Below are positions 16,445 through 27,139 of a stretch of DNA of 30,503 bases, piece after piece. Within the stretch, counting starts at the first letter, position 1, and each line of letters starts with the position of its first letter. The position numbers and the translations under genes are program-made. This DNA is from a virus: UHGV virus genome UHGV-0123901. One strand, written 5' to 3'. The notes beneath the pieces are model-generated. The model ran no database searches. It was not told the origin of the DNA and worked only from the letters and a program-made list of their open reading frames with translations.

Positions 16445-17518
16445 TTACGCTCCCGGCTCTGCGGTCGCTTTAGCCAGTGTGGAGAAATCACCGACCTTAA
16501 TTTTTTCCACCAGACAACCGGCGGCGTAGTCTTCCACCACGTAATCAATGTTCATTGACTCGTAGTTCTCCACGCGGTCGAGTTTCGGGTTTTCCTCAAT
16601 CACGCGGCGATGGCTGTCATCCATGTAGTAGATGGACAGGTTTTCCAGCTTTGTGATGAGCATCGCATCCGCCGGGAAGTACGGGACGCGTACCGCCGGC
16701 AGGTTACCGATGCGTTTCTGGCTGATGATGACGTCAGCGGCCAGCATTTCGCTGTTGTCCTGCTCCTTGTTGACGATGGGAAAATACTTGTCCGCCAGTA
16801 GCTGACGTCCCACAATCACCACAAGGTCAGGGTCTTCCTGATACCACGGCTCAATCAGGTTGTTGGTCGCATCCATCACCAGTGCGTCAAGGCTGGCATA
16901 ATCACCGCCCTTACCCACGCGGATAACCTCAGAGGTGGTGTGCCCTTCCTCGTCAGTGACCTTGCTCATCACGCGCGCCGGGGCTTCATTGCGGTATTTC
17001 TGCAGCCAGCCGACCGCCACATCCTGCAGCATCGGATTGCTGCTGCGGTCAGAGGTTTCGGCACGCCTCACGCCGTTAAAACCGGCCATGATTAAATCAA
17101 GGGACTGGCGTTTGATAATGGCGTTACGGACACGGAGCTGGAAATCCTGATAACGCGCCCACAGGTCCAGCGTTTTGTAGCGGATATAAAAATCGAAGTT
17201 AATCTGGTCGCATTCGTACTTGTTTGACGCCAGCTTCGAGAAGTCCTTCGGCTGACGCTCGGTGCCACCGGCGGTGTCGGTGGTGCTGGCGATGGAGCCG
17301 GTGACACCGATGCCAATTTTTTCCCCTTTCATTTCGCTGACCGGCACAATGTTGATGCGGGTCAGAAAGTCAGAGGACTCCTGCATGGTGTTCATCAGGG
17401 TCTGGGTGACCGACGGTTCAACGGTGAATTTTTTCGACACATCACCAGCGTCGATGCCGTTCAGTTCGGCAACACGGGACAGGTAGGCATTAAATTTAAA
17501 GCGGGTTTCCTGGCGCAT
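16445..17518 (-). CDS. N: major capsid protein (P2 gpN-like)
   Basis: 357-aa ORF between O and M. Confidence 0.9.
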   Translation of the reverse strand: MRQETRFKFNAYLSRVAELNGIDAGDVSKKFTVEPSVTQTLMNTMQESSDFLTRINIVPVSEMKGEKIGIGVTGSIASTTDTAGGTERQPKDFSKLASNKYECDQINFDFYIRYKTLDLWARYQDFQLRVRNAIIKRQSLDLIMAGFNGVRRAETSDRSSNPMLQDVAVGWLQKYRNEAPARVMSKVTDEEGHTTSEVIRVGKGGDYASLDALVMDATNNLIEPWYQEDPDLVVIVGRQLLADKYFPIVNKEQDNSEMLAADVIISQKRIGNLPAVRVPYFPADAMLITKLENLSIYYMDDSHRRVIEENPKLDRVENYESMNIDYVVEDYAAGCLVEKIKVGDFSTLAKATAEPGA

Positions 17519-17576: not shown

Positions 17577-18431
17577 TCAGCAGTTCGTCATCAGGGCGTC
17601 ACCGCCACCACCGGTGGCCTTGCTGCGGCGCTGCTGGGTCAGACTTTCGGTGTGGTCGAGACTGTTTTTCAGGCGGGTGAATGCCTGGCTGGTTTCATCC
17701 GCCCTGTCAGTCACATCCTGCTTAAGTGCGGAAAAAGCGGTTTCCATCTCAGCGAGGCGCTGCTCAGTGGCGCTCAGTTTTTCCTGCACATGTTCAGCAA
17801 CAGCGGTCACCGCTTCATGCACGTCATTCAGACGGGCGTCATCGCTGGCCTGTTTGCGGCCAAAAATGGACTTCACCTTTTCGGTCAGGGCGGTGAACAC
17901 GGTTTCAGGCAGGTCTTCAAATTCCAGCTCAACGGGCGTTGCCACTGAAATCAGGTTTTCAGGGCTTAATTTGAAGCGGTTCAGGGGGTTGTGTTTTGCC
18001 GTGCGGCAGAATTCCAGGTATTCCGTGCCGAGGCTTGCCGGGTCATCGGTGACGGCCAGACCCACCAGATAACATTTGCCGGTATTGGCAAAGTTCGGCT
18101 GAATTTCCATTGAGGTATAGACCTTCTGCGCGGCCTTGTTCATCGCGATAAGGTCATCGGTCGGGGTGATTTTCGCAAACAGCGCCCATTTGCCTTTCAG
18201 CGCCGAATCATCGTCAATCTTTTCGGCCTTCAGTTCGGCCACATCGCCATAACGCTTAAAAATACCGTCAGGCAGGATGCCGCGCAGATGTTCCAGGTTA
18301 ATGCGGCAACCATAGACTCGCGGGTCAAAGGTTTCGGCCATTTCCTGAATATCCTGCGCACTGATGACACGCCCGTCACAGGTGTCACCCTCTACGCCGA
18401 TACGAAAGAATTTTGAGACTTTTTTTGCCAT
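17577..18431 (-). CDS. O: capsid scaffolding protein (P2 gpO-like)
   Basis: 284-aa product starting MAKKVSKFFRIGVEG (internal start of the 306-aa ORF); divergent from P. Confidence 0.85.
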   Translation of the reverse strand: MAKKVSKFFRIGVEGDTCDGRVISAQDIQEMAETFDPRVYGCRINLEHLRGILPDGIFKRYGDVAELKAEKIDDDSALKGKWALFAKITPTDDLIAMNKAAQKVYTSMEIQPNFANTGKCYLVGLAVTDDPASLGTEYLEFCRTAKHNPLNRFKLSPENLISVATPVELEFEDLPETVFTALTEKVKSIFGRKQASDDARLNDVHEAVTAVAEHVQEKLSATEQRLAEMETAFSALKQDVTDRADETSQAFTRLKNSLDHTESLTQQRRSKATGGGGDALMTNC

Positions 18432-18604
18432 TGTCAGGAGTCCTGAATAGTGATTAGAGGAGTCACATGTCGGCATCAGTTTCCCGACGATGCGCATCCT
18501 CCGCCATCAGTCCCGGATGGCTTATCACTGACACAACAGCACCTTAGCGAATCGCGGGACGCGACTCAGTAGCCTTGCCGTGTATTCATCACGGCGAGGT
18601 ATTC

Positions 18605-20377
18605 ATGACCATCACCACAGACACCACTCTTTTACACGACCCGCGTCGTCAGGCGGCGCTGCTGTACTGGCAGGGGTTTTCCGTGCCGCAGATTGCCGCC
18701 ATGTTGCAGATGAAACGCCCGACGGTGCAGAGCTGGAAACAGCGCGACGGCTGGGACAGCGTTGCCCCCATCAGCCGTGTCGAAATGAGTCTGGAAGCGC
18801 GGCTGACCCAGCTCATCATCAAACCGCAGAAAACCGGCGGTGACTTCAAGGAAATTGACCTGCTCGGACGCCAGATTGAACGACTGGCACGGGTCAACCG
18901 TTACAGTCAGACCGGCAACGAGGCAGACCTTAATCCGAACGTCGCTAACCGCAACAAAGGCGGGCGTCGCAAACCGAAAAAGAATTTTTTCAGTGACGAG
19001 GCCATCGAAAAGCTGGAGCAGATTTTCTTTGAGCAGTCTTTCGAATATCAGTTGCACTGGTATCGCGCCGGGCTTGAGCACCGCATCCGCGATATCCTGA
19101 AATCCCGCCAGATTGGCGCAACGTTTTATTTTTCCCGCGAGGCGCTGCTGCGCGCCCTGAAAACCGGTCATAACCAGATTTTTCTGTCGGCCAGTAAAAC
19201 GCAGGCGTATGTGTTCCGCGAATACATCATCGCCTTTGCCCGGCTGGTTGACGTTGACCTGACCGGTGACCCGATTGTCCTGGGCAATAACGGCGCAAAA
19301 CTGATTTTTCTCGGCACCAACTCCAACACCGCACAGAGCCATAACGGTGACCTGTACGTCGACGAGTTTTTCTGGATCCCGAATTTTCAGGTACTGCGTA
19401 AGGTGGCATCAGGTATGGCCTCACAGAGTCACCTGCGCTCGACCTATTTCTCCACCCCGTCCACGCTGGCGCACGACGCCTATCCGTTCTGGTCGGGTGA
19501 ACTGTTCAACCGGGGACGCGCCAGCGCCGCCGAACGCGTGGAAATCGACGTCAGTCATAACGCCCTTGCCGGTGGGCTTCTCTGTGCGGACGGCCAGTGG
19601 CGGCAGATTGTCACCATTGAGGACGCCCTGAAAGGTGGCTGCACGCTGTTCGACATTGAGCAGCTTAAACGCGAAAACAGCGCCGACGATTTTAAAAACC
19701 TGTTCATGTGTGAATTTGTTGACGACAAGGCGTCGGTATTCCCGTTCGAGGAGCTGCAACGCTGCATGGTCGACACGCTGGAAGAATGGGAAGACTATGC
19801 GCCGTTTGCCGCGAATCCGTTCGGCTCCCGTCCGGTCTGGATTGGTTACGACCCGTCACACCGTGGCGACAGCGCCGGATGCGTGGTGCTGGCACCGCCG
19901 GTGGTGGCCGGTGGCAAATTCAGAATACTTGAGCGTCACCAGTGGAAAGGCATGGACTTTGCCACTCAGGCGGAATCCATCCGCAAACTCACCGAAAAAT
20001 ACAACGTCGAATACATCGGTATTGATGCCACCGGCCTCGGTGTCGGCGTGTTCCAGCTCGTGCGCTCGTTCTATCCCGCCGCGCGCGATATCCGCTACAC
20101 GCCGGAAATGAAAACCGCAATGGTGCTCAAGGCAAAAGACGTTATCCGCCGTGGCTGTCTGGAATATGACGTCAGCGCCACCGACATCACCAGCTCGTTT
20201 ATGGCTATTCGCAAGACCATGACCAGCAGCGGACGCAGCGCCACCTATGAGGCCAGCCGCAGCGAGGAAGCCAGCCACGCCGACCTCGCCTGGGCGACCA
20301 TGCACGCCCTGTTAAATGAGCCACTCACCGCCGGTATCAGCACCCCGCTGACATCCACCATTCTGGAGTTTTACTGA
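18605..20377 (+). CDS. P: terminase large (ATPase) subunit (P2 gpP-like)
   Basis: 590-aa product starting MTITTDTTLL with a GAGG RBS upstream; its stop overlaps the Q start (TGATGA). Confidence 0.9.
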   Translation: MTITTDTTLLHDPRRQAALLYWQGFSVPQIAAMLQMKRPTVQSWKQRDGWDSVAPISRVEMSLEARLTQLIIKPQKTGGDFKEIDLLGRQIERLARVNRYSQTGNEADLNPNVANRNKGGRRKPKKNFFSDEAIEKLEQIFFEQSFEYQLHWYRAGLEHRIRDILKSRQIGATFYFSREALLRALKTGHNQIFLSASKTQAYVFREYIIAFARLVDVDLTGDPIVLGNNGAKLIFLGTNSNTAQSHNGDLYVDEFFWIPNFQVLRKVASGMASQSHLRSTYFSTPSTLAHDAYPFWSGELFNRGRASAAERVEIDVSHNALAGGLLCADGQWRQIVTIEDALKGGCTLFDIEQLKRENSADDFKNLFMCEFVDDKASVFPFEELQRCMVDTLEEWEDYAPFAANPFGSRPVWIGYDPSHRGDSAGCVVLAPPVVAGGKFRILERHQWKGMDFATQAESIRKLTEKYNVEYIGIDATGLGVGVFQLVRSFYPAARDIRYTPEMKTAMVLKAKDVIRRGCLEYDVSATDITSSFMAIRKTMTSSGRSATYEASRSEEASHADLAWATMHALLNEPLTAGISTPLTSTILEFY

Positions 20378-21411
20378 TGAGCAAGAAAAAAGGGAAAACA
20401 CCGCAACCTGCGGCAAAAAAAATGACCGCCAGCGCCCCGAAAATGGAGGCATTCACCTTTGGTGAGCCGGTGCCGGTACTCGACCGCCGTGACATTCTGG
20501 ATTACGTCGAGTGCATCAGTAATGGCAGATGGTATGAGCCACCGGTCAGCTTTACCGGTCTGGCAAAAAGCCTGCGTGCTGCCGTGCATCACAGCTCACC
20601 GATTTACGTCAAACGCAATATTCTGGCCTCGACATTTATCCCGCATCCGTGGCTTTCACAACAGGATTTCAGCCGCTTTGTGCTGGATTTTCTGGTGTTC
20701 GGTAATGCGTTTCTGGAAAAGCGTTACAGCACCACCGGTAAGGTCATCAGACTGGAAACCTCACCGGCAAAATATACCCGCCGTGGGGTGGAAGAGGATG
20801 TTTACTGGTGGGTGCCGTCCTTCAACGAACCGACAGCCTTCGCGCCCGGCTCCGTGTTTCACCTGCTGGAGCCGGATATTAATCAGGAGTTGTACGGCCT
20901 GCCGGAATATCTCAGCGCCCTTAATTCTGCCTGGCTGAATGAGTCGGCCACGCTGTTCCGCCGAAAGTATTACGAAAATGGCGCACATGCCGGATACATC
21001 ATGTACGTCACCGATGCCGTGCAGGATCGCAACGATATCGAAATGCTTCGCGAAAACATGGTGAAGTCGAAAGGCCGCAACAACTTTAAAAACCTGTTTC
21101 TCTACGCCCCACAGGGGAAAGCCGACGGCATTAAAATTATCCCGCTCAGTGAAGTGGCAACGAAGGACGATTTTTTTAATATCAAAAAAGCCAGCGCCGC
21201 TGACCTGCTTGACGCGCACCGCATCCCCTTTCAGCTGATGGGTGGCAAGCCGGAAAACGTCGGGTCGCTGGGCGATATTGAGAAAGTGGCAAAGGTCTTT
21301 GTCCGCAATGAGCTTATCCCGCTACAGGACAGGATCCGCGAGATAAACGACTGGCTCGGTCAGGAGGTCATCCGCTTTAAAAACTACTCACTGGACACTG
21401 ACAACGGCTGA
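20377..21411 (+). CDS. Q: portal protein (P2 gpQ-like)
   Basis: 344-aa ORF adjacent to cos. Confidence 0.9.
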   Translation: MSKKKGKTPQPAAKKMTASAPKMEAFTFGEPVPVLDRRDILDYVECISNGRWYEPPVSFTGLAKSLRAAVHHSSPIYVKRNILASTFIPHPWLSQQDFSRFVLDFLVFGNAFLEKRYSTTGKVIRLETSPAKYTRRGVEEDVYWWVPSFNEPTAFAPGSVFHLLEPDINQELYGLPEYLSALNSAWLNESATLFRRKYYENGAHAGYIMYVTDAVQDRNDIEMLRENMVKSKGRNNFKNLFLYAPQGKADGIKIIPLSEVATKDDFFNIKKASAADLLDAHRIPFQLMGGKPENVGSLGDIEKVAKVFVRNELIPLQDRIREINDWLGQEVIRFKNYSLDTDNG

Positions 21412-21415
21412 ACAT

Positions 21416-21439
21416 CGCCGCCTGCGGGCGGCTTTTTTA
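21416..21439 (+). terminator. intrinsic terminator downstream of Q
   Basis: GC hairpin cgccgcc-tgcg-ggcggc followed by a run of six T. Confidence 0.6.
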
Positions 21440-21580
21440 CATCCCGTCATCACGCCCTCACACGCTCACCACCGCACAAAACAGCCCGCAGGCAAACCAA
21501 CGCCTCAACGGACAGACTAAGCGCCGTCACGACGCGCTGAGACGCTGAAAAAATAAAATCAGCACCACCGCCAGCGCGCA

Positions 21581-21599
21581 GTGCTTTCCCCGCCTCGCC
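21581..21599. other. cos cohesive-end site (P2-type 19-nt)
   Basis: gtgctttccccgcctcgcc is the exact reverse complement of the P2 cohesive end GGCGAGGCGGGGAAAGCAC as I recall it; located beside Q as expected. Confidence 0.85.
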
Positions 21600-21674
21600 C
21601 GCCCGCTTCGTGGAGCGGTTTTAATGCAGTTGTATAACGACGCAGACTTCCTGACAGTTCTATCTACTCATAAC

Positions 21675-21699
21675 AAAAAAAAGCATTACAGATGAATGC
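21675..21699 (-). terminator. possible weak intrinsic terminator at the end of the cargo operon
   Basis: On the minus strand, a 5-bp stem (gcatt/aatgc) followed by a run of eight T, about 50 nt after the stop of the 266-aa gene. Confidence 0.3.
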
Positions 21700-21748
21700 A
21701 AAATCATGCAACTAATGAAGGCGTACAGGCTAGGTGAGAAAATAAATG

Positions 21749-22549
21749 CTATTTCATCAGTCCTATAAAAGCTGCTGTCATGCTACCCAATGCACCAATA
21801 GCAGCAAATAACGTTGCCCAAAACATGCTTTTTTGGCTACGAATATTCTCATTATATCGTTGTTCTTCATTATTGAAGTGATTTAACGTATTAATTGCTT
21901 TTCCGGTGGGCTTATAACCATCTCGAGTCTTTGAAATGTCCCCACTCTCTACAAGGGAATCCAGACATAAGCGAAGTTCTTTTATGAGTCGAGAATAATC
22001 ATCATGGTAGATCCATAAACGTCCTGCCACATCATTCATAATTAGAGTCTCCCTGAATGGTTTTTCCCCTTGCTGCTCTCGATAAATTCTGACAATTGCA
22101 GCCAATACCGTCATTACATCAGTTATCTCCTGCTTGCGTTGTCGATACAAATACTTCTCACGACTTAGCTTTTTATTTTGACGATCCGCTATTCTTCTAA
22201 ATCTAAGTACATTAAAATAAGATAAATCATCCAATGAGTCAAACTTCAATTCATGCGCATGATAATAATAAATTCCAGAAAAGGAATTTGATGTAAGTCG
22301 TTCTGGTTTAAGAATTGTATCAATATTGAAAGTTTTATTCTGATGACTCCACTTCTTAACCTTTATAATTCCGTTTGAATAACTATCAAAAAGATAGTCA
22401 TTACCCTCATCATCCTTAATGTAAACGGAATACATATCGTAATGAATGGCACTCTCATACATTAAACTAATTCTGCCATTTTCAGGAGTCTTCTTTGACT
22501 CAAAAACTTTCAGAAACTTTACAACATCAACTTTATTTTTATGCCTCAT
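21749..22549 (-). CDS. hypothetical protein with single C-terminal hydrophobic helix; candidate effector of the RT module
   Basis: 266-aa ORF in AT-rich cargo DNA, 165 bp downstream of the RT gene on the same strand; C-terminus MFWATLFAAIGALGSMTAAFIGLMK; no domain recognised by eye. Confidence 0.6.
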   Translation of the reverse strand: MRHKNKVDVVKFLKVFESKKTPENGRISLMYESAIHYDMYSVYIKDDEGNDYLFDSYSNGIIKVKKWSHQNKTFNIDTILKPERLTSNSFSGIYYYHAHELKFDSLDDLSYFNVLRFRRIADRQNKKLSREKYLYRQRKQEITDVMTVLAAIVRIYREQQGEKPFRETLIMNDVAGRLWIYHDDYSRLIKELRLCLDSLVESGDISKTRDGYKPTGKAINTLNHFNNEEQRYNENIRSQKSMFWATLFAAIGALGSMTAAFIGLMK

Positions 22550-22714
22550 ACATTCAGCCTTGACTGTAAACCACCATATTAAATGATTGCACTAACGACT
22601 CGTACTACTTATTGTTCAACCCAGTCAGAACTGAAAGCAAACTTTTGCACTAACTGGGTTGCCATCATAATATATCGATACTAATAAAATCCGATATTAT
22701 TATATTTTAGTGTA

Positions 22715-23665
22715 TTAAACCGATGTATTTGCTTTCAACGTCAATACTTTCGATCTATAACGTTTTTCAATAACCCCCATTGAATATAAACGACCAAATA
22801 ATTTCTTTGCTGTTCTTGTATCTTTAGCTTGTTCTACATCTTTTATTATTTTCCAAAGCTCTATTTCTCTAGCCATAAGATAATGCTGTTCGTTCCTAAC
22901 CTTTAAGCTATCCCCAAATACTATAACTCCTGTCACTAGTTTAGGCTTATCCCCAGCATATAATTTCGTTTTAGTTGGATGCATAGCGTGTCCATGCTTA
23001 TTAATAATCTTACGAATCACGCTGCAAAACAATCGATTTACATTATCTCCAGAAAAAGTAAGATCATCGACATAAACTGTCATTTTCACACGAAACTTCT
23101 CACAAAGTTGATTCATTTCATCAAACATTCTGGAATTTGCAAAATATGCTAATGGCATACTAATCCGACTACCCGTTGGCAATCGTTCATGACAGGTACA
23201 TATATGAGATAAAATATCAGCCACATCTGGCGACATTTTCATTATTGAGAAAAAGAAAGAAAATATCATTTCTCTTGTTGTTGACGGAAAAAAAGATCTA
23301 ATATCTGTAGTCATCAACTTCTGATGATTGAGATGTGCTTTAGCATTTGTTATGTTAGAGCAACTTTTTTTACCAGAGTGTAAATATTCGGGCATAGCTA
23401 TACGCAATAATAAACTCGCAATACGTGTATGCACTACATCTAATTTTTCTAAAGGCTTTTGTATTTTCCGTATTTTATTTTTTTTAGAAAGCTGTTCAAA
23501 AATAGAGTAATTACCCTCATCCCTTTTCAAAACTGATAGGTCATTGATACTAACGCAGAGCAAGCTAGCCAACTTTTTTTTACTTTTAAGTTTATAAAGT
23601 GGCGAATCCGTAATAGGATAAGATTTATTTTTAGTTGAAACCTTCAGCTTAATCCTTTTTTTCAT
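22715..23665 (-). CDS. reverse transcriptase, retron-type
   Basis: 316-aa ORF with NAKAH...DIRSFFPS (NAxxH and finger motifs), LPTGSRISMPLAYFAN (motif B-like), VYVDDLTFSG (YxDD catalytic motif C) and KLVTGVIVFG (the VTG triplet typical of retron RTs). Confidence 0.85.
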   Translation of the reverse strand: MKKRIKLKVSTKNKSYPITDSPLYKLKSKKKLASLLCVSINDLSVLKRDEGNYSIFEQLSKKNKIRKIQKPLEKLDVVHTRIASLLLRIAMPEYLHSGKKSCSNITNAKAHLNHQKLMTTDIRSFFPSTTREMIFSFFFSIMKMSPDVADILSHICTCHERLPTGSRISMPLAYFANSRMFDEMNQLCEKFRVKMTVYVDDLTFSGDNVNRLFCSVIRKIINKHGHAMHPTKTKLYAGDKPKLVTGVIVFGDSLKVRNEQHYLMAREIELWKIIKDVEQAKDTRTAKKLFGRLYSMGVIEKRYRSKVLTLKANTSV

Positions 23666-23963
23666 TTCTTTTACTTACCCACTCTAGTATATCCAGAACT
23701 TTCCCTGCCAGTTTTAAACGTAAACTTTTGGATAATCGTCCTTGTGTCCCTAATGATTCTGAAAAAAAGACCAAAGAGGATACTGGCATGTCGAAATGGG
23801 AAGCATAACGCTGTAAAATATCAATCGACGGCACCCATAGTCCGCTTTCAATCTCTACTATTCTGCTTTTTGGAATACCTAAAGATGATGATAAGTCAAC
23901 TATTGATTCTTTATGGTATTGCCTTATTAAACGAAGGGCTTTATGCAACATAGGCAACTCCAT
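23649..23963 (-). CDS. XRE-family helix-turn-helix protein, translationally coupled to the RT gene
   Basis: 104-aa ORF with HTH signature SIVDLSSSLGIPKSRIVEIESG; its stop overlaps the RT start by 17 nt. Confidence 0.6.
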   Translation of the reverse strand: MELPMLHKALRLIRQYHKESIVDLSSSLGIPKSRIVEIESGLWVPSIDILQRYASHFDMPVSSLVFFSESLGTQGRLSKSLRLKLAGKVLDILEWVSKRNEKKD

Positions 23964-23987
23964 CTTGTTGAAACTAGGGAGGACGCA

Positions 23988-24143
23988 TTACTCATCTCCC
24001 CCTTCAAAGAAGTCAACTGCGCGAGTGATCCAATAAAGTAGTCTAATAAGCCACTTAATTACACCCCAAGCGTTAGGAGTCTTCTTTTTCCGGTTTAACT
24101 TGTTTTGCGCCTGCTGTTCGTTGGTTACTTTATCATTTTTCAT
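23988..24143 (-). CDS. small hypothetical protein (51 aa) with hydrophobic segment; may instead be non-coding
   Basis: AAGGAG RBS 6 nt before the ATG (MKNDKVTNEQ...), hydrophobic AWGVIKWLIRLLYWITRAV; a longer 97-aa upstream extension seems less likely. Confidence 0.3.
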   Translation of the reverse strand: MKNDKVTNEQQAQNKLNRKKKTPNAWGVIKWLIRLLYWITRAVDFFEGGDE

Positions 24144-24245
24144 GATCTGCTCCTTATGTCCACGGTGTGCAAACGATATGTCTGCTCCAGCACCATGGCT
24201 CGCCCTCATAAGGATGAGATTGAACAGCACCAGCTCCCTGCTCCA

Positions 24246-24272
24246 CGAACCCTTTGTCGCCCAAAGGGTTCG
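24246..24272. repeat. perfect 11-bp stem hairpin (cgaaccctttg / caaagggttcg, 5-nt loop)
   Basis: Read directly; not followed by a T-run on either strand, so not an obvious terminator. Confidence 0.5.
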
Positions 24273-24585
24273 AATACCCATACGCTATGCCGCGTGAATC
24301 AGAGACTCCTGTCGCTGACAGAGGCGTTGCGCGGGGTAAATGTTAGAAAGCATTAGCTTTCCACGGGCAATAAATACCCAATTGATGGCGATTTATCTCA
24401 CTAACTAACCAATGATTGAATCATACCAAGTAAACCGTTGTATTTGATCTCTCCTTATATAATTTTTTGTTATTAAACAACATAAATGAATAACAAAATG
24501 AAATAAAACTAATCTTCATCCGTCTCATCACAAGAAATATCAACAAATCAAGAATATCGTTTGATTATCTAGTCTTTCCAATTCA

Positions 24586-26874
24586 TTAAAATAAAAACAA
24601 TGCTTCATCTTCAATTCCCGGCCAAACATCAGCAACCGGATACGTGAATTTTTTCCCGTCATAATTTACAGTTGCTCCACGCGCCAGCGCCTCAAGTTCC
24701 CATCGCTGCGGCCTGATACCGTTCTGAGCAAGGTCAACGCGGATACGGGTAATTTGCATTCGTTCCGACCGGGTCAGCCTGGCTGATGGAGCTATTTCAT
24801 GCGGTTTTAACGGGCTTCCGTTTCTTTGCTGACGGTTTGGTGTTCTCAGGTCGTGTTTTAATGCGCCCCTGAGCGCCCTCACGACCTCCGGGTCATTCCA
24901 TTCGATAACACCATCATCAACCAGATTAAGCACTGCTGCGGCGTGCTCAGAAGGCGTGGGAGCCGGTAACGAAGTATCACCACCGGTGAGCTTTCCACAG
25001 TTATTGACAGGACTCCGAGGCGCGGCGATGCCGCTTTTTAAAGTCAAAGGCTCCACGACCGGAACTTTCGGCACAATGCGCCAGTCCGTCGTTCTGGTGA
25101 TATGAATATGACGCGCGCCGAGATGTGGCGCGTAAATGCCGACCACTCTCTCGACTTCTTCCTCGTACTCGTTAACTTCATCCGACGGGCTACGGGCGAC
25201 TCTGACAGTCTGGCAATCGCGCGGAACGTTTGCCCCACCCTGCGCACTGATATACAACGCAAAATCGCCACTGTCTGCGGCAGCGCGTGCAGCCTCGACG
25301 CGTTCGTCAAACTCATCAGCAATGCTGACGCCGCGAGGCAATTTGCGTAGTTCACGGTAAGCCCCCATTGTCGGCAGACCAACCGTTTTAAATTGCGGGA
25401 TGCGCCACGTTGACGCCCATGCAGTAACAGCCGCGGCAGTATCTTTCAGAGGTCTGCCGGTATCGTTATCGAGCTGACCATCCAGTGCATAGCCGTCGAT
25501 GTTTTTTGAGATGTATTTCGCGATATACCCCGCAGCACCGCCCCGATTAAGGTGTTTTGCCTGAAAACGGTTTCGCGCGGCTCCTCTTTCGTCGCCATCC
25601 TCTTTGAGCGCATAGCGACGCATGATTTCAATAATCTGGTTACGCTGGCGTGGATTACAAAAAAGCATCATATGCCAGTGCGGCGTTCCGTCGTGGTGTG
25701 GTTCAACAACACGCAAACCGTAGACCTGTAAATCATTATCCTTGAATGCCGTGCGCATCAGGCTCCAGATACGGCAGAGATAACGCTGCGCATCCTTTGG
25801 ATTAAATGCCTCATCGTTCCAGCCGTGATTAAGCTGCACGGTTTTACTTTCGCCTTTTCCGACCTGACGTGTCGGGTGATACTTTGACGGCGCGGTCAGC
25901 GTGATAAACATCCCCACATCACCCTCTGCAGCGGCGTAACGCTCAATACCGGCAATGGTGTTCATCAGCTCCATCCGGCGAATTTCAGGATTAGAAATAC
26001 TTCCCATCACCTTACTGATAAGGTCGATGCGCTCGCCGGTTTCCCTGTTTTCAAGGTCACACGATTTAAGAAATTCCAGATTTGCCTGGCGGCGTGCACG
26101 CACATCACGAATGGCATGTTTACTGGCATAAGGAGAACGGTCTTTATTGACTTCCCCGACAGCTATCAGTAACGCCTCATGCCAGCGCATACGCTGGCCT
26201 TTAAGCTGATGAGTCCACCACTCATCGTTAAACAGACGGGCAATGGCAGAATATGCCTGCCTCGTGGTCATCTGCCCTTTACGGTATTTTTTCCAGTAGA
26301 GAGGGGAAATATTGAAAGCACGTGCAGCGCCAGCAACATGACCATACAGGTGAGCCTGCGCCTCATCCGTAAACAGCGATTCTTTTTCGCCATGCGCATC
26401 CACCCAGGCATCGCTGAGTTCCTCATACATCATGAAAAGCTGCGATGAGATACGGGCAGCAAACTTTTTCAGCTCCTTGTCATTCATTCCCGGCAGGCGC
26501 GCATAGTGGTCACGCTCTGCCAGAAACAGTAACGACGCGTCGGTGTTCATTTCATGGCGCTGATTCACACGCTCAATGCGCGGCCATAAACGACGCTGAA
26601 AAGTGGATGTGAGGAAATAAAACCCGTGCACCGGGCTTTTATTGCGCCGGATGTAGTCATAGCGTGAAGTAAACAGCGAGCGCAAAAAGTAAGGCAGGCG
26701 GTTAATCGTGGATAAAACACCTTGCACCTGACGCATCTCGTCACGTGTAAGGGGTCTTTCGCGCCCGACAGCCTCGCGTGGCGCGTTCCATGCATAAGCA
26801 CCGGTAAACGCCTTACCGGTGCCTGCGGCAAATGCTGACGGAGGGACAAAACGCCCGGAGGCTTTAACGGCCAT
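24586..26874 (-). CDS. A: rolling-circle replication initiator (P2 gpA-like)
   Basis: 762-aa product starting MAVKASGRFVPPSAF (internal start of the 776-aa ORF), matching the P2 A N-terminus. Confidence 0.9.
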   Translation of the reverse strand: MAVKASGRFVPPSAFAAGTGKAFTGAYAWNAPREAVGRERPLTRDEMRQVQGVLSTINRLPYFLRSLFTSRYDYIRRNKSPVHGFYFLTSTFQRRLWPRIERVNQRHEMNTDASLLFLAERDHYARLPGMNDKELKKFAARISSQLFMMYEELSDAWVDAHGEKESLFTDEAQAHLYGHVAGAARAFNISPLYWKKYRKGQMTTRQAYSAIARLFNDEWWTHQLKGQRMRWHEALLIAVGEVNKDRSPYASKHAIRDVRARRQANLEFLKSCDLENRETGERIDLISKVMGSISNPEIRRMELMNTIAGIERYAAAEGDVGMFITLTAPSKYHPTRQVGKGESKTVQLNHGWNDEAFNPKDAQRYLCRIWSLMRTAFKDNDLQVYGLRVVEPHHDGTPHWHMMLFCNPRQRNQIIEIMRRYALKEDGDERGAARNRFQAKHLNRGGAAGYIAKYISKNIDGYALDGQLDNDTGRPLKDTAAAVTAWASTWRIPQFKTVGLPTMGAYRELRKLPRGVSIADEFDERVEAARAAADSGDFALYISAQGGANVPRDCQTVRVARSPSDEVNEYEEEVERVVGIYAPHLGARHIHITRTTDWRIVPKVPVVEPLTLKSGIAAPRSPVNNCGKLTGGDTSLPAPTPSEHAAAVLNLVDDGVIEWNDPEVVRALRGALKHDLRTPNRQQRNGSPLKPHEIAPSARLTRSERMQITRIRVDLAQNGIRPQRWELEALARGATVNYDGKKFTYPVADVWPGIEDEALFLF

Positions 26875-27139
26875 ATGAGCCAAAAGCCTCTGAACAACGC
26901 TTGCTGAGTTGCTCAACCTGCGCGTTTAAATCAGCAAAAGACTTTGCGCTTCCGGTCAGAATATCGTGATGCATCAGGCCGGAAACGAGCTGGCTTAATT
27001 TCGGGTAATAACCAACCACCGCCAGCCATTCCTGACCGGCATTTTTACCGCTTTCCGCTCTCTTTTTCTCGTGGAGAATAAACTGAAAGCTGTCACTGGT
27101 AACGACATAACGTTCGCCAATTTCGATACGAATACTCAT
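26864..27139 (-). CDS. hypothetical early protein (P2 orf83 position)
   Basis: 91-aa ORF in the operon-packed block between B and A. Confidence 0.55.
   Translation of the reverse strand: MSIRIEIGERYVVTSDSFQFILHEKKRAESGKNAGQEWLAVVGYYPKLSQLVSGLMHHDILTGSAKSFADLNAQVEQLSKRCSEAFGSYGR

Follow-up and report, generated by a model that had tools for sequence, protein, structure and literature searches.

Does a membrane protein encoded just behind a retron reverse transcriptase (RT) serve that RT as its effector, or is it a separate gene that shares the locus? A 30,503-nucleotide stretch of viral DNA (UHGV-0123901; the whole stretch analysed, hereafter the window) raises this question with T266, a 266-residue protein with a predicted tail anchor, encoded on the minus strand at 21749..22549. 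A sequence-only reading of the window had proposed T266 as a membrane-acting effector of the RT encoded upstream of it, with the caveat that it may be a separate module.

T266 is a genuine gene in the cos-proximal hotspot of a P2-like prophage

The window, a P2-like prophage, encodes capsid N (16445-17518) and scaffold O (17577-18497) on the minus strand, terminase P (18575-20377) and portal Q (20377-21411) on the plus strand, and replication protein A (repA, 24586-26916) again on the minus strand. An AT-rich island (33-41% GC) separates portal from repA and is flanked by phage genes of 52-53% GC. It occupies the cos-proximal gpA-gpQ locus, where P2 carries old and tin and which is a known hotspot for anti-phage systems; many of its cassettes are validated defences and part of the cargo is non-defensive, e.g., partition systems and cytolethal distending toxin (Rousset et al. 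2022, PMC9122126). The interval from T266 to the portal gene contains a conserved P2 cos-proximal region (21412..21638, no strand assigned) that is matched in more than 2100 E. coli genomes.

T266 is a genuine gene rather than a chance open reading frame (ORF). It begins with ATG, with AAGG 10-13 nt upstream of the start, the same ORF is annotated by NCBI at a 99% identical E. coli locus, and the protein aligns with PHROG 7611 from end to end (9e-146, 260 of 260 profile positions). The RT stop at 22715 and the T266 start at 22549 leave a 165-nt spacer between two genes on one strand, and the GC content of T266 (34.8%) is close to that of the RT (32.7%) and far from the 52-53% of the flanking phage genes; T266 is AT-rich cargo, horizontally acquired. 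Its sole hydrophobic segment is MFWATLFAAIGALGSMTAAFIGLM, residues 242-265, with a Kyte-Doolittle 19-residue mean of 1.9 at residues 247-265. The sequence-only reading is thus borne out on the intact ORF with a single C-terminal membrane anchor of 24 hydrophobic residues, on the distance and strand relative to the RT and on base composition, as it is, at the sequence level, in having recognised no motif: searches of Pfam, NCBIfam and PADLOC with T266 return no match.

T266 belongs to a large family with a predicted winged helix and membrane anchor

A profile search of 1.84 billion representatives collects 677 clusters (50% identity) at E <= 1e-3, nearly all of 250-300 residues, and the 29 clusters of close homologues come from Enterobacterales with a mean column identity of 69%. 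The hydrophobic segment near the C-terminus is kept in 172 of 194 full-length relatives. A Pfam scan of T266 and 28 diverse relatives assigns no family, an HMM search of PDB sequences with the family gives no match, Foldseek finds nothing below E 0.01 among viral structures, and tblastn of T266 against INPHARED phages is likewise empty. No defence or candidate-defence HMM of PADLOC-DB v2 matches T266, and three homologues reach it only at non-significant values (E >= 0.002); neither a catalytic motif nor a toxin or nuclease signature is found in the protein. A literature search by family-member accessions and by PHROG 7611 returned no papers.

The architecture of T266 was predicted with AlphaFold2 from 22 homologues (pLDDT 83; 86 for an N-terminal construct). 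The model comprises a small N-terminal beta-barrel of six strands (approximately residues 36-105; 22235..22444, minus strand), a long helix at residues 111-137, a winged-helix domain (approximately residues 145-215; 21905..22117, minus strand) in whose predicted structure both the three-helix bundle and the beta-hairpin wing are present, and a 50-residue helix (216-265). The final 24 residues of this helix form the A/G/S-rich transmembrane (TM) anchor (21755..21826, minus strand), which is also indicated by hydropathy and by conservation across the superfamily. The winged helix, of the MarR/TubR/kleisin class, is the sole confidently recognised domain, and the predicted topology is N-in and tail-anchored, with barrel and winged helix in the cytoplasm. 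The sequence-only reading had suggested TM and structure prediction and a remote-homology search as checks; the former places the anchor at the end of the last helix, and the latter yields PHROG 7611 and the 677 clusters and no relative in Pfam, PADLOC or the PDB.

By homology, T266 is a new allele of a family already catalogued, as PHROG 7611 and as system #68 of Rousset et al. 2022, who list the family as a single gene with 62 occurrences, no Pfam domain and '1 TM'. This assignment draws on the ORF, the PHROG match, the homologues, the AlphaFold2 model and Table S5B of Rousset et al. together. T266 is homologous to the family over its full length, with 55% identity to the listed E. coli variant (P0023), and shares with it the cos-proximal gpA-gpQ location and the single C-terminal TM segment; it differs in that the window allele is of another lineage and is preceded by a retron, not by the 243-residue protein described below. 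Neither PHROG 7611 nor Rousset et al. 2022 gives a function for the family, and we found no sign that system #68 had been tested.

A complete type VI retron lies next to T266

The operon upstream of T266 (22715-24416) is a type VI retron, encoded throughout on the minus strand. The 316-residue RT (22715..23665) matches the PADLOC model RT_VI at 1.4e-105, and the 104-residue helix-turn-helix (HTH) protein, whose gene (23649..23963) overlaps the RT start by 17 nt, matches HTH_VI at 2.5e-31. Upstream of these lies the gene for a 51-residue small protein, SP (23988..24143; PHROG 15287, 6.3e-34), the expected toxic effector on the strength of preprints, and upstream of SP a conserved non-coding region (24144..24416), predicted to contain msr-msd or the 5' part of the hybrid RNA. 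This region of approximately 270 nt is strongly conserved in a four-way comparison, with compensatory stem changes, e.g., GAACCCTTTGGGCGACAAAGGGTTC versus GAAGCATTGGGCGACCAATGCTTC, and nucleotide homology between retrons, by blastn, extends no further 5' than its outer end at 24416. An Rfam scan of 21000-25000 at E <= 1 gives no match, so neither the retron RNA nor the hairpin in the RT-T266 spacer is in Rfam.

SP is conserved at 66-100% in related retrons (66-67% identity in three diverged copies), and NCBI annotates a 51-residue SP coding sequence at homologous loci. The 97-residue ORF called at 23988-24281 is over-extended: only its final 51 codons (23988-24143), which have AAGGAG as ribosome-binding site, are the SP gene, and the rest of the call runs into the structured non-coding region. 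Published type VI retron operons consist of the non-coding RNA (msr-msd), SP, HTH and RT, and Retron-Vpa2 and Retron-Sen3 are described as SP-HTH-RT systems only (10.1101/2025.10.22.683967; 10.64898/2026.04.27.721009). In Retron-Vpa2, SP is the toxic effector and is encoded within the hybrid RNA (10.1101/2025.10.22.683967); in Retron-Sen3, the HTH protein neutralises SP, which is a toxin (10.64898/2026.04.27.721009). Mutations made in Vpa2 SP were K15*, I39R, F43R and F45R (10.1101/2025.10.22.683967), and the window SP has K15, I39, V at 43 and F45 when positions are compared by number rather than by alignment, an agreement that is suggestive.

The retron of the window shares with Retron-Vpa2, -Eco12 and -Sen3 the RT and HTH families, the position and size of SP, the non-coding RNA and the gene order, and it is complete and canonical without T266, which is not in the defined operon. 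Since RT_VI, HTH_VI, SP and the non-coding RNA are all in place, the effector role that the sequence-only reading had assigned to T266 is already filled by SP. T266 and SP are unrelated in sequence, and T266 is five times larger, with 266 residues encoded downstream of the RT and not approximately 50 residues encoded between the non-coding RNA and HTH. T266 matches no retron-associated PADLOC model.

T266 lies outside the conserved retron cassette

The boundary of the cassette is seen against Acerihabitans arboris (L013), to which blastn aligns window positions 24416-22725 at 71% identity and nothing else of the island. Homology starts at the non-coding RNA and stops at the RT stop, which places T266 outside the conserved cassette. 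The HTH and RT genes overlap by 17 nt, unlike T266, which begins 165 nt past the RT and beyond a phage backbone element.

The distribution of the two genes points the same way. Related SP-HTH-RT cassettes are present in 100 of 5426 complete E. coli genomes as three variants, with >=99%, ~81% and ~77% nucleotide identity, and the island with both retron and T266 is found whole in only 10 E. coli records, all of a single lineage. Downstream of the retron, on the opposite strand, the ~77% variant has an FRG-domain gene and the ~81% variant a gene for a 145-residue protein. Three more retron loci are followed by a 177-aa gene, a 309-aa gene or nothing, with no match to the T266 HMM, and in plasmid copies of the retron from Aeromonas and Serratia, Hok/Gef and RelE/ParD modules come next. 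T266 does not consistently co-occur with RT_VI and HTH_VI: it is missing from approximately 90% of the related E. coli retron loci and occurs elsewhere mostly where there is no retron. These co-occurrence figures are drawn from a modest set of independent contexts, as the genome-contig scan and the RT metagenome scan gave 2 loci each.

Two features of the retron loci themselves deserve mention. The related type VI retrons of the 100 E. coli genomes, O157:H7 strains included, sit in the P2 gpA-gpQ hotspot, and each of the three variants has its own downstream neighbour, namely T266, the FRG-domain protein or the hypothetical 145-residue protein. The 309-aa ORF (L071:5074-6000) directly follows its retron on the same strand in a P2-like hotspot and is not a relative of T266 by HMM.

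The alleles of T266 and RT do not co-diverge. Window T266 shares 72% identity with retron-less copies from Enterobacter and only 38% with the other retron-adjacent copy, although the RT next to that copy shares 74% with the window RT. RT diversification is described as following SP cluster identity (Toro preprint). Neither position in the cassette, nor co-occurrence, nor homology to SP identifies T266 as a type VI retron component, and it is very probably separate from the retron, the reading that the earlier caveat had allowed for.

A backbone hairpin appears to divide the hotspot

The 165-nt spacer between RT and T266 has no ORF and contains a P2-family backbone element (22590..22660, minus strand) composed of a 16-bp hairpin at 22618-22660 followed by GTTGAACAAYRAG...CGAGKCGTTAGT at 22590-22620. 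The stem covaries, with compensatory changes in 10 of 22 pairs. The element is found in 70 phage records, P2, 186, Wphi and PSP3 among them, and a query that starts with it is matched over its first ~73 nt in ~545 E. coli genomes. Phages 186 and P2 carry the same hairpin and no retron, and in other prophages the element separates T266 from the gene for the 243-residue protein or from tum, or precedes both. It appears to separate a repA-side slot from a cos-side slot of the gpA-gpQ hotspot, with cargo on either side. The type VI retron thus lies on the repA side of the hairpin and T266 on the cos side, and the hotspot of the window is best read as two independent modules.

The hairpin has no U-tract on either strand and is thus not an obvious intrinsic terminator. 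A promoter scan gives no more sites than shuffled sequence and no convincing sigma-70 promoter directly upstream of T266, so read-through from the retron operon into T266 is possible. The hairpin and its GTTRRRY-like motif were also considered as an integron attC-type site, which was rejected because neither an inverse core site nor an integron context is present.

Genomic contexts of T266 relatives

The surroundings of the family were surveyed with tblastn at 49 loci. In P2/186-like prophages, T266 is invariably the last gene before cos, convergent with the portal gene, and its upstream neighbour is a 243-residue protein with two TM helices (~25 loci), tum/DinI, repA or an RT; an RT in this position is limited to the near-identical lineage of the window. 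Other relatives lie at the end of another type of prophage, after the tail-fibre genes, on a Yersinia conjugative plasmid with HEPN and DUF2971 proteins on either side, in an integrase island, among toxin-antitoxin (TA) modules, or between housekeeping genes.

The commonest upstream neighbour, the 243-residue protein (L003:5138-5869, L009:2823-3554), carries two TM helices at its N-terminus and matches neither Pfam nor PADLOC. It is system #12 of Rousset et al. 2022, listed as a single gene with 210 occurrences and '2 TM', and it also occurs without T266. Tight coupling to a partner is seen only once in the family, with an AbiJ_NTD4 gene: in a P2-like prophage, near gpD, a 291-residue AbiJ_NTD4 protein (L072:408-1283) is encoded by a gene that ends 28 nt before the T266-family gene.

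Most of the surveyed T266 loci have no retron, and the exception beyond the window lineage is A. arboris, in which a 257-residue family member follows SP-HTH-RT_VI by 460 nt on the same strand in a region flanked by type IV secretion system genes. The spacer there is unrelated to that of the window, there is no P2 backbone, and a PDC-S31/DUF2971 gene follows the T266-family gene. The closest relative of this T266 allele with a usable context adjoins the AbiJ_NTD4 gene, not a retron. The recurrence of T266-RT_VI adjacency in a second element is more than expected if two rare families were unrelated; with two rare families adjacent twice, and with different alleles, the pattern either reflects shared residence in defence islands or hints at functional synergy. 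Two cases of adjacency set against many counter-examples on both sides lead us to regard a functional link to the retron as improbable.

DUF2971 genes lie directly downstream of divergent T266-clade genes at two loci (L013:9002-9769, PDC-S31, Acerihabitans; L074:3913-4653, Yersinia hibernica plasmid), which belong to unrelated conjugative elements and differ in orientation. DUF2971 may be a second recurrent neighbour of the family.

Discussion

On balance, we favour T266 as an autonomous single-gene cargo cassette of the P2 hotspot and not a component of the retron, a reading to which we give somewhat better than even credence. That it has an anti-phage function of some kind is about an even call, and the chance that T266 by itself constitutes a new single-gene, tail-anchored anti-phage system, from a family of 677 clusters without known relatives, falls just short of that. 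A membrane-acting defence role is plausible, because T266 is a real gene for a predicted tail-anchored protein and is AT-rich, acquired cargo in a known anti-phage hotspot. Of the proposal of a tail-anchored, membrane-acting effector, the predicted anchor stands, and the link to the RT is not supported.

TM effectors are common in abortive-infection systems, and known examples include the 2TM protein of type IV retrons and the TM effectors of CBASS and Pycsar; AbiP of Lactococcus is a membrane-anchored nucleic-acid-binding Abi protein. T266 would share with such systems a general logic, in which a recognition domain in the cytoplasm is coupled to a membrane helix and the protein is encoded in defence islands or prophages. 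With old and tin of P2 it shares the cos-proximal slot of P2-like prophages and the expectation of acting against other phages; T266 is unrelated to them in sequence, predicted to be membrane-anchored and without an enzymatic motif, in contrast to the ATPase-nuclease Old and the soluble Tin. From the old/tin slot of a validated hotspot, the defence-type neighbours, the turnover of alleles and the use of TM effectors in abortive infection, we infer a defence role in which T266 would most likely be an inner-membrane-anchored phage-exclusion or abortive-infection protein. Expressed by the prophage and anchored in the inner membrane, T266 would use its cytoplasmic barrel and winged helix to recognise a component of an incoming phage, nucleic acid or protein, and its TM helix, rich in small residues, may place it at the site of DNA entry; alternatively, the TM helix may oligomerise, with membrane damage as the outcome. 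A sensor-plus-TM mechanism of this kind is offered tentatively and is, as a specific proposal, on the unlikely side.

T266 could instead be non-defensive prophage cargo, i.e., a membrane-tethered winged-helix regulator, a maintenance factor of prophage or plasmid, or a 'moron' with a fitness function. We consider this fairly unlikely, though a serious rival. It would accommodate a protein in which no domain other than a winged helix (MarR/TubR/kleisin class) is recognised with confidence and which bears no toxin or nuclease signature, and it agrees with the partition systems and toxins unrelated to defence that P2 hotspots also hold and with the distant relatives found between housekeeping genes. 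The neighbours that recur around the family are those of genetic conflict, namely type VI retron, AbiJ_NTD4, HEPN, DUF2971/PDC-S31 and TA modules, which argues against it, as do the occupation of the P2 old/tin slot and the fast divergence of alleles (38-72% identity) that is typical of conflict genes.

A role for T266 as an optional accessory or second effector in a subset of type VI retrons, e.g., with the winged helix binding msDNA or the RT-HTH complex and the TM helix damaging the membrane, is improbable. Strand and gene order in the window lineage are compatible with it, TM effectors are used by other retron types, and in the unrelated conjugative element of Acerihabitans another RT_VI, 74% identical, is directly followed by a homologue with 38% identity to T266. 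Approximately three quarters of HTH-encoding type VI retrons are without an SP of the recognised clusters (type VI retron preprint), although the window retron has its own SP and both Vpa2 and Sen3 were characterised as SP-HTH-RT systems. Retron copies are homologous only as far as the RT stop, approximately 90 of 100 related E. coli retrons and the plasmid copies are without T266, and most T266 genes have no retron nearby. The two spacers are long (165 and 460 nt) and mutually unrelated, the T266 alleles do not co-diverge with RT, and the AbiJ_NTD4 context of the closest relative of the Acerihabitans copy also speaks against an accessory role. A related possibility, to which we give equally little credence, is that the family is a plug-in membrane output module recruited repeatedly and independently by type VI retrons, with the barrel or winged helix sensing msDNA or RT-HTH; if so, T266 would add a second, membrane-level kill switch to the SP toxin.

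The idea that T266 and the 243-residue 2-TM protein together form a two-gene membrane system, with T266 orphaned in the window where the retron displaced its partner, draws on their direct adjacency in ~25 loci of Enterobacter, Klebsiella, Cronobacter and E. coli and is very improbable, as T266 directly follows repA or tum without the partner in at least 12 loci, the 243-residue protein occurs alone, the position of the backbone hairpin varies by lineage, from between the two genes to upstream of the pair, and systems #12 and #68 are listed as separate single-gene systems (Rousset et al. 2022).

Read as an autonomous cassette, T266 bears on how such loci are annotated. The effector of the RT system in the window is the 51-residue SP hidden in a 97-residue ORF call, and not the larger membrane protein downstream; to call T266 the retron effector would misdirect experiments and annotation. 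The P2 hotspot shows here at least two slots, with a conserved structured element as their divider. T266 represents a large family that is found recurrently in defence hotspots of prophages, plasmids and islands, and, at one gene of ~800 bp, it is a compact and easily tested candidate anti-phage or exclusion gene.
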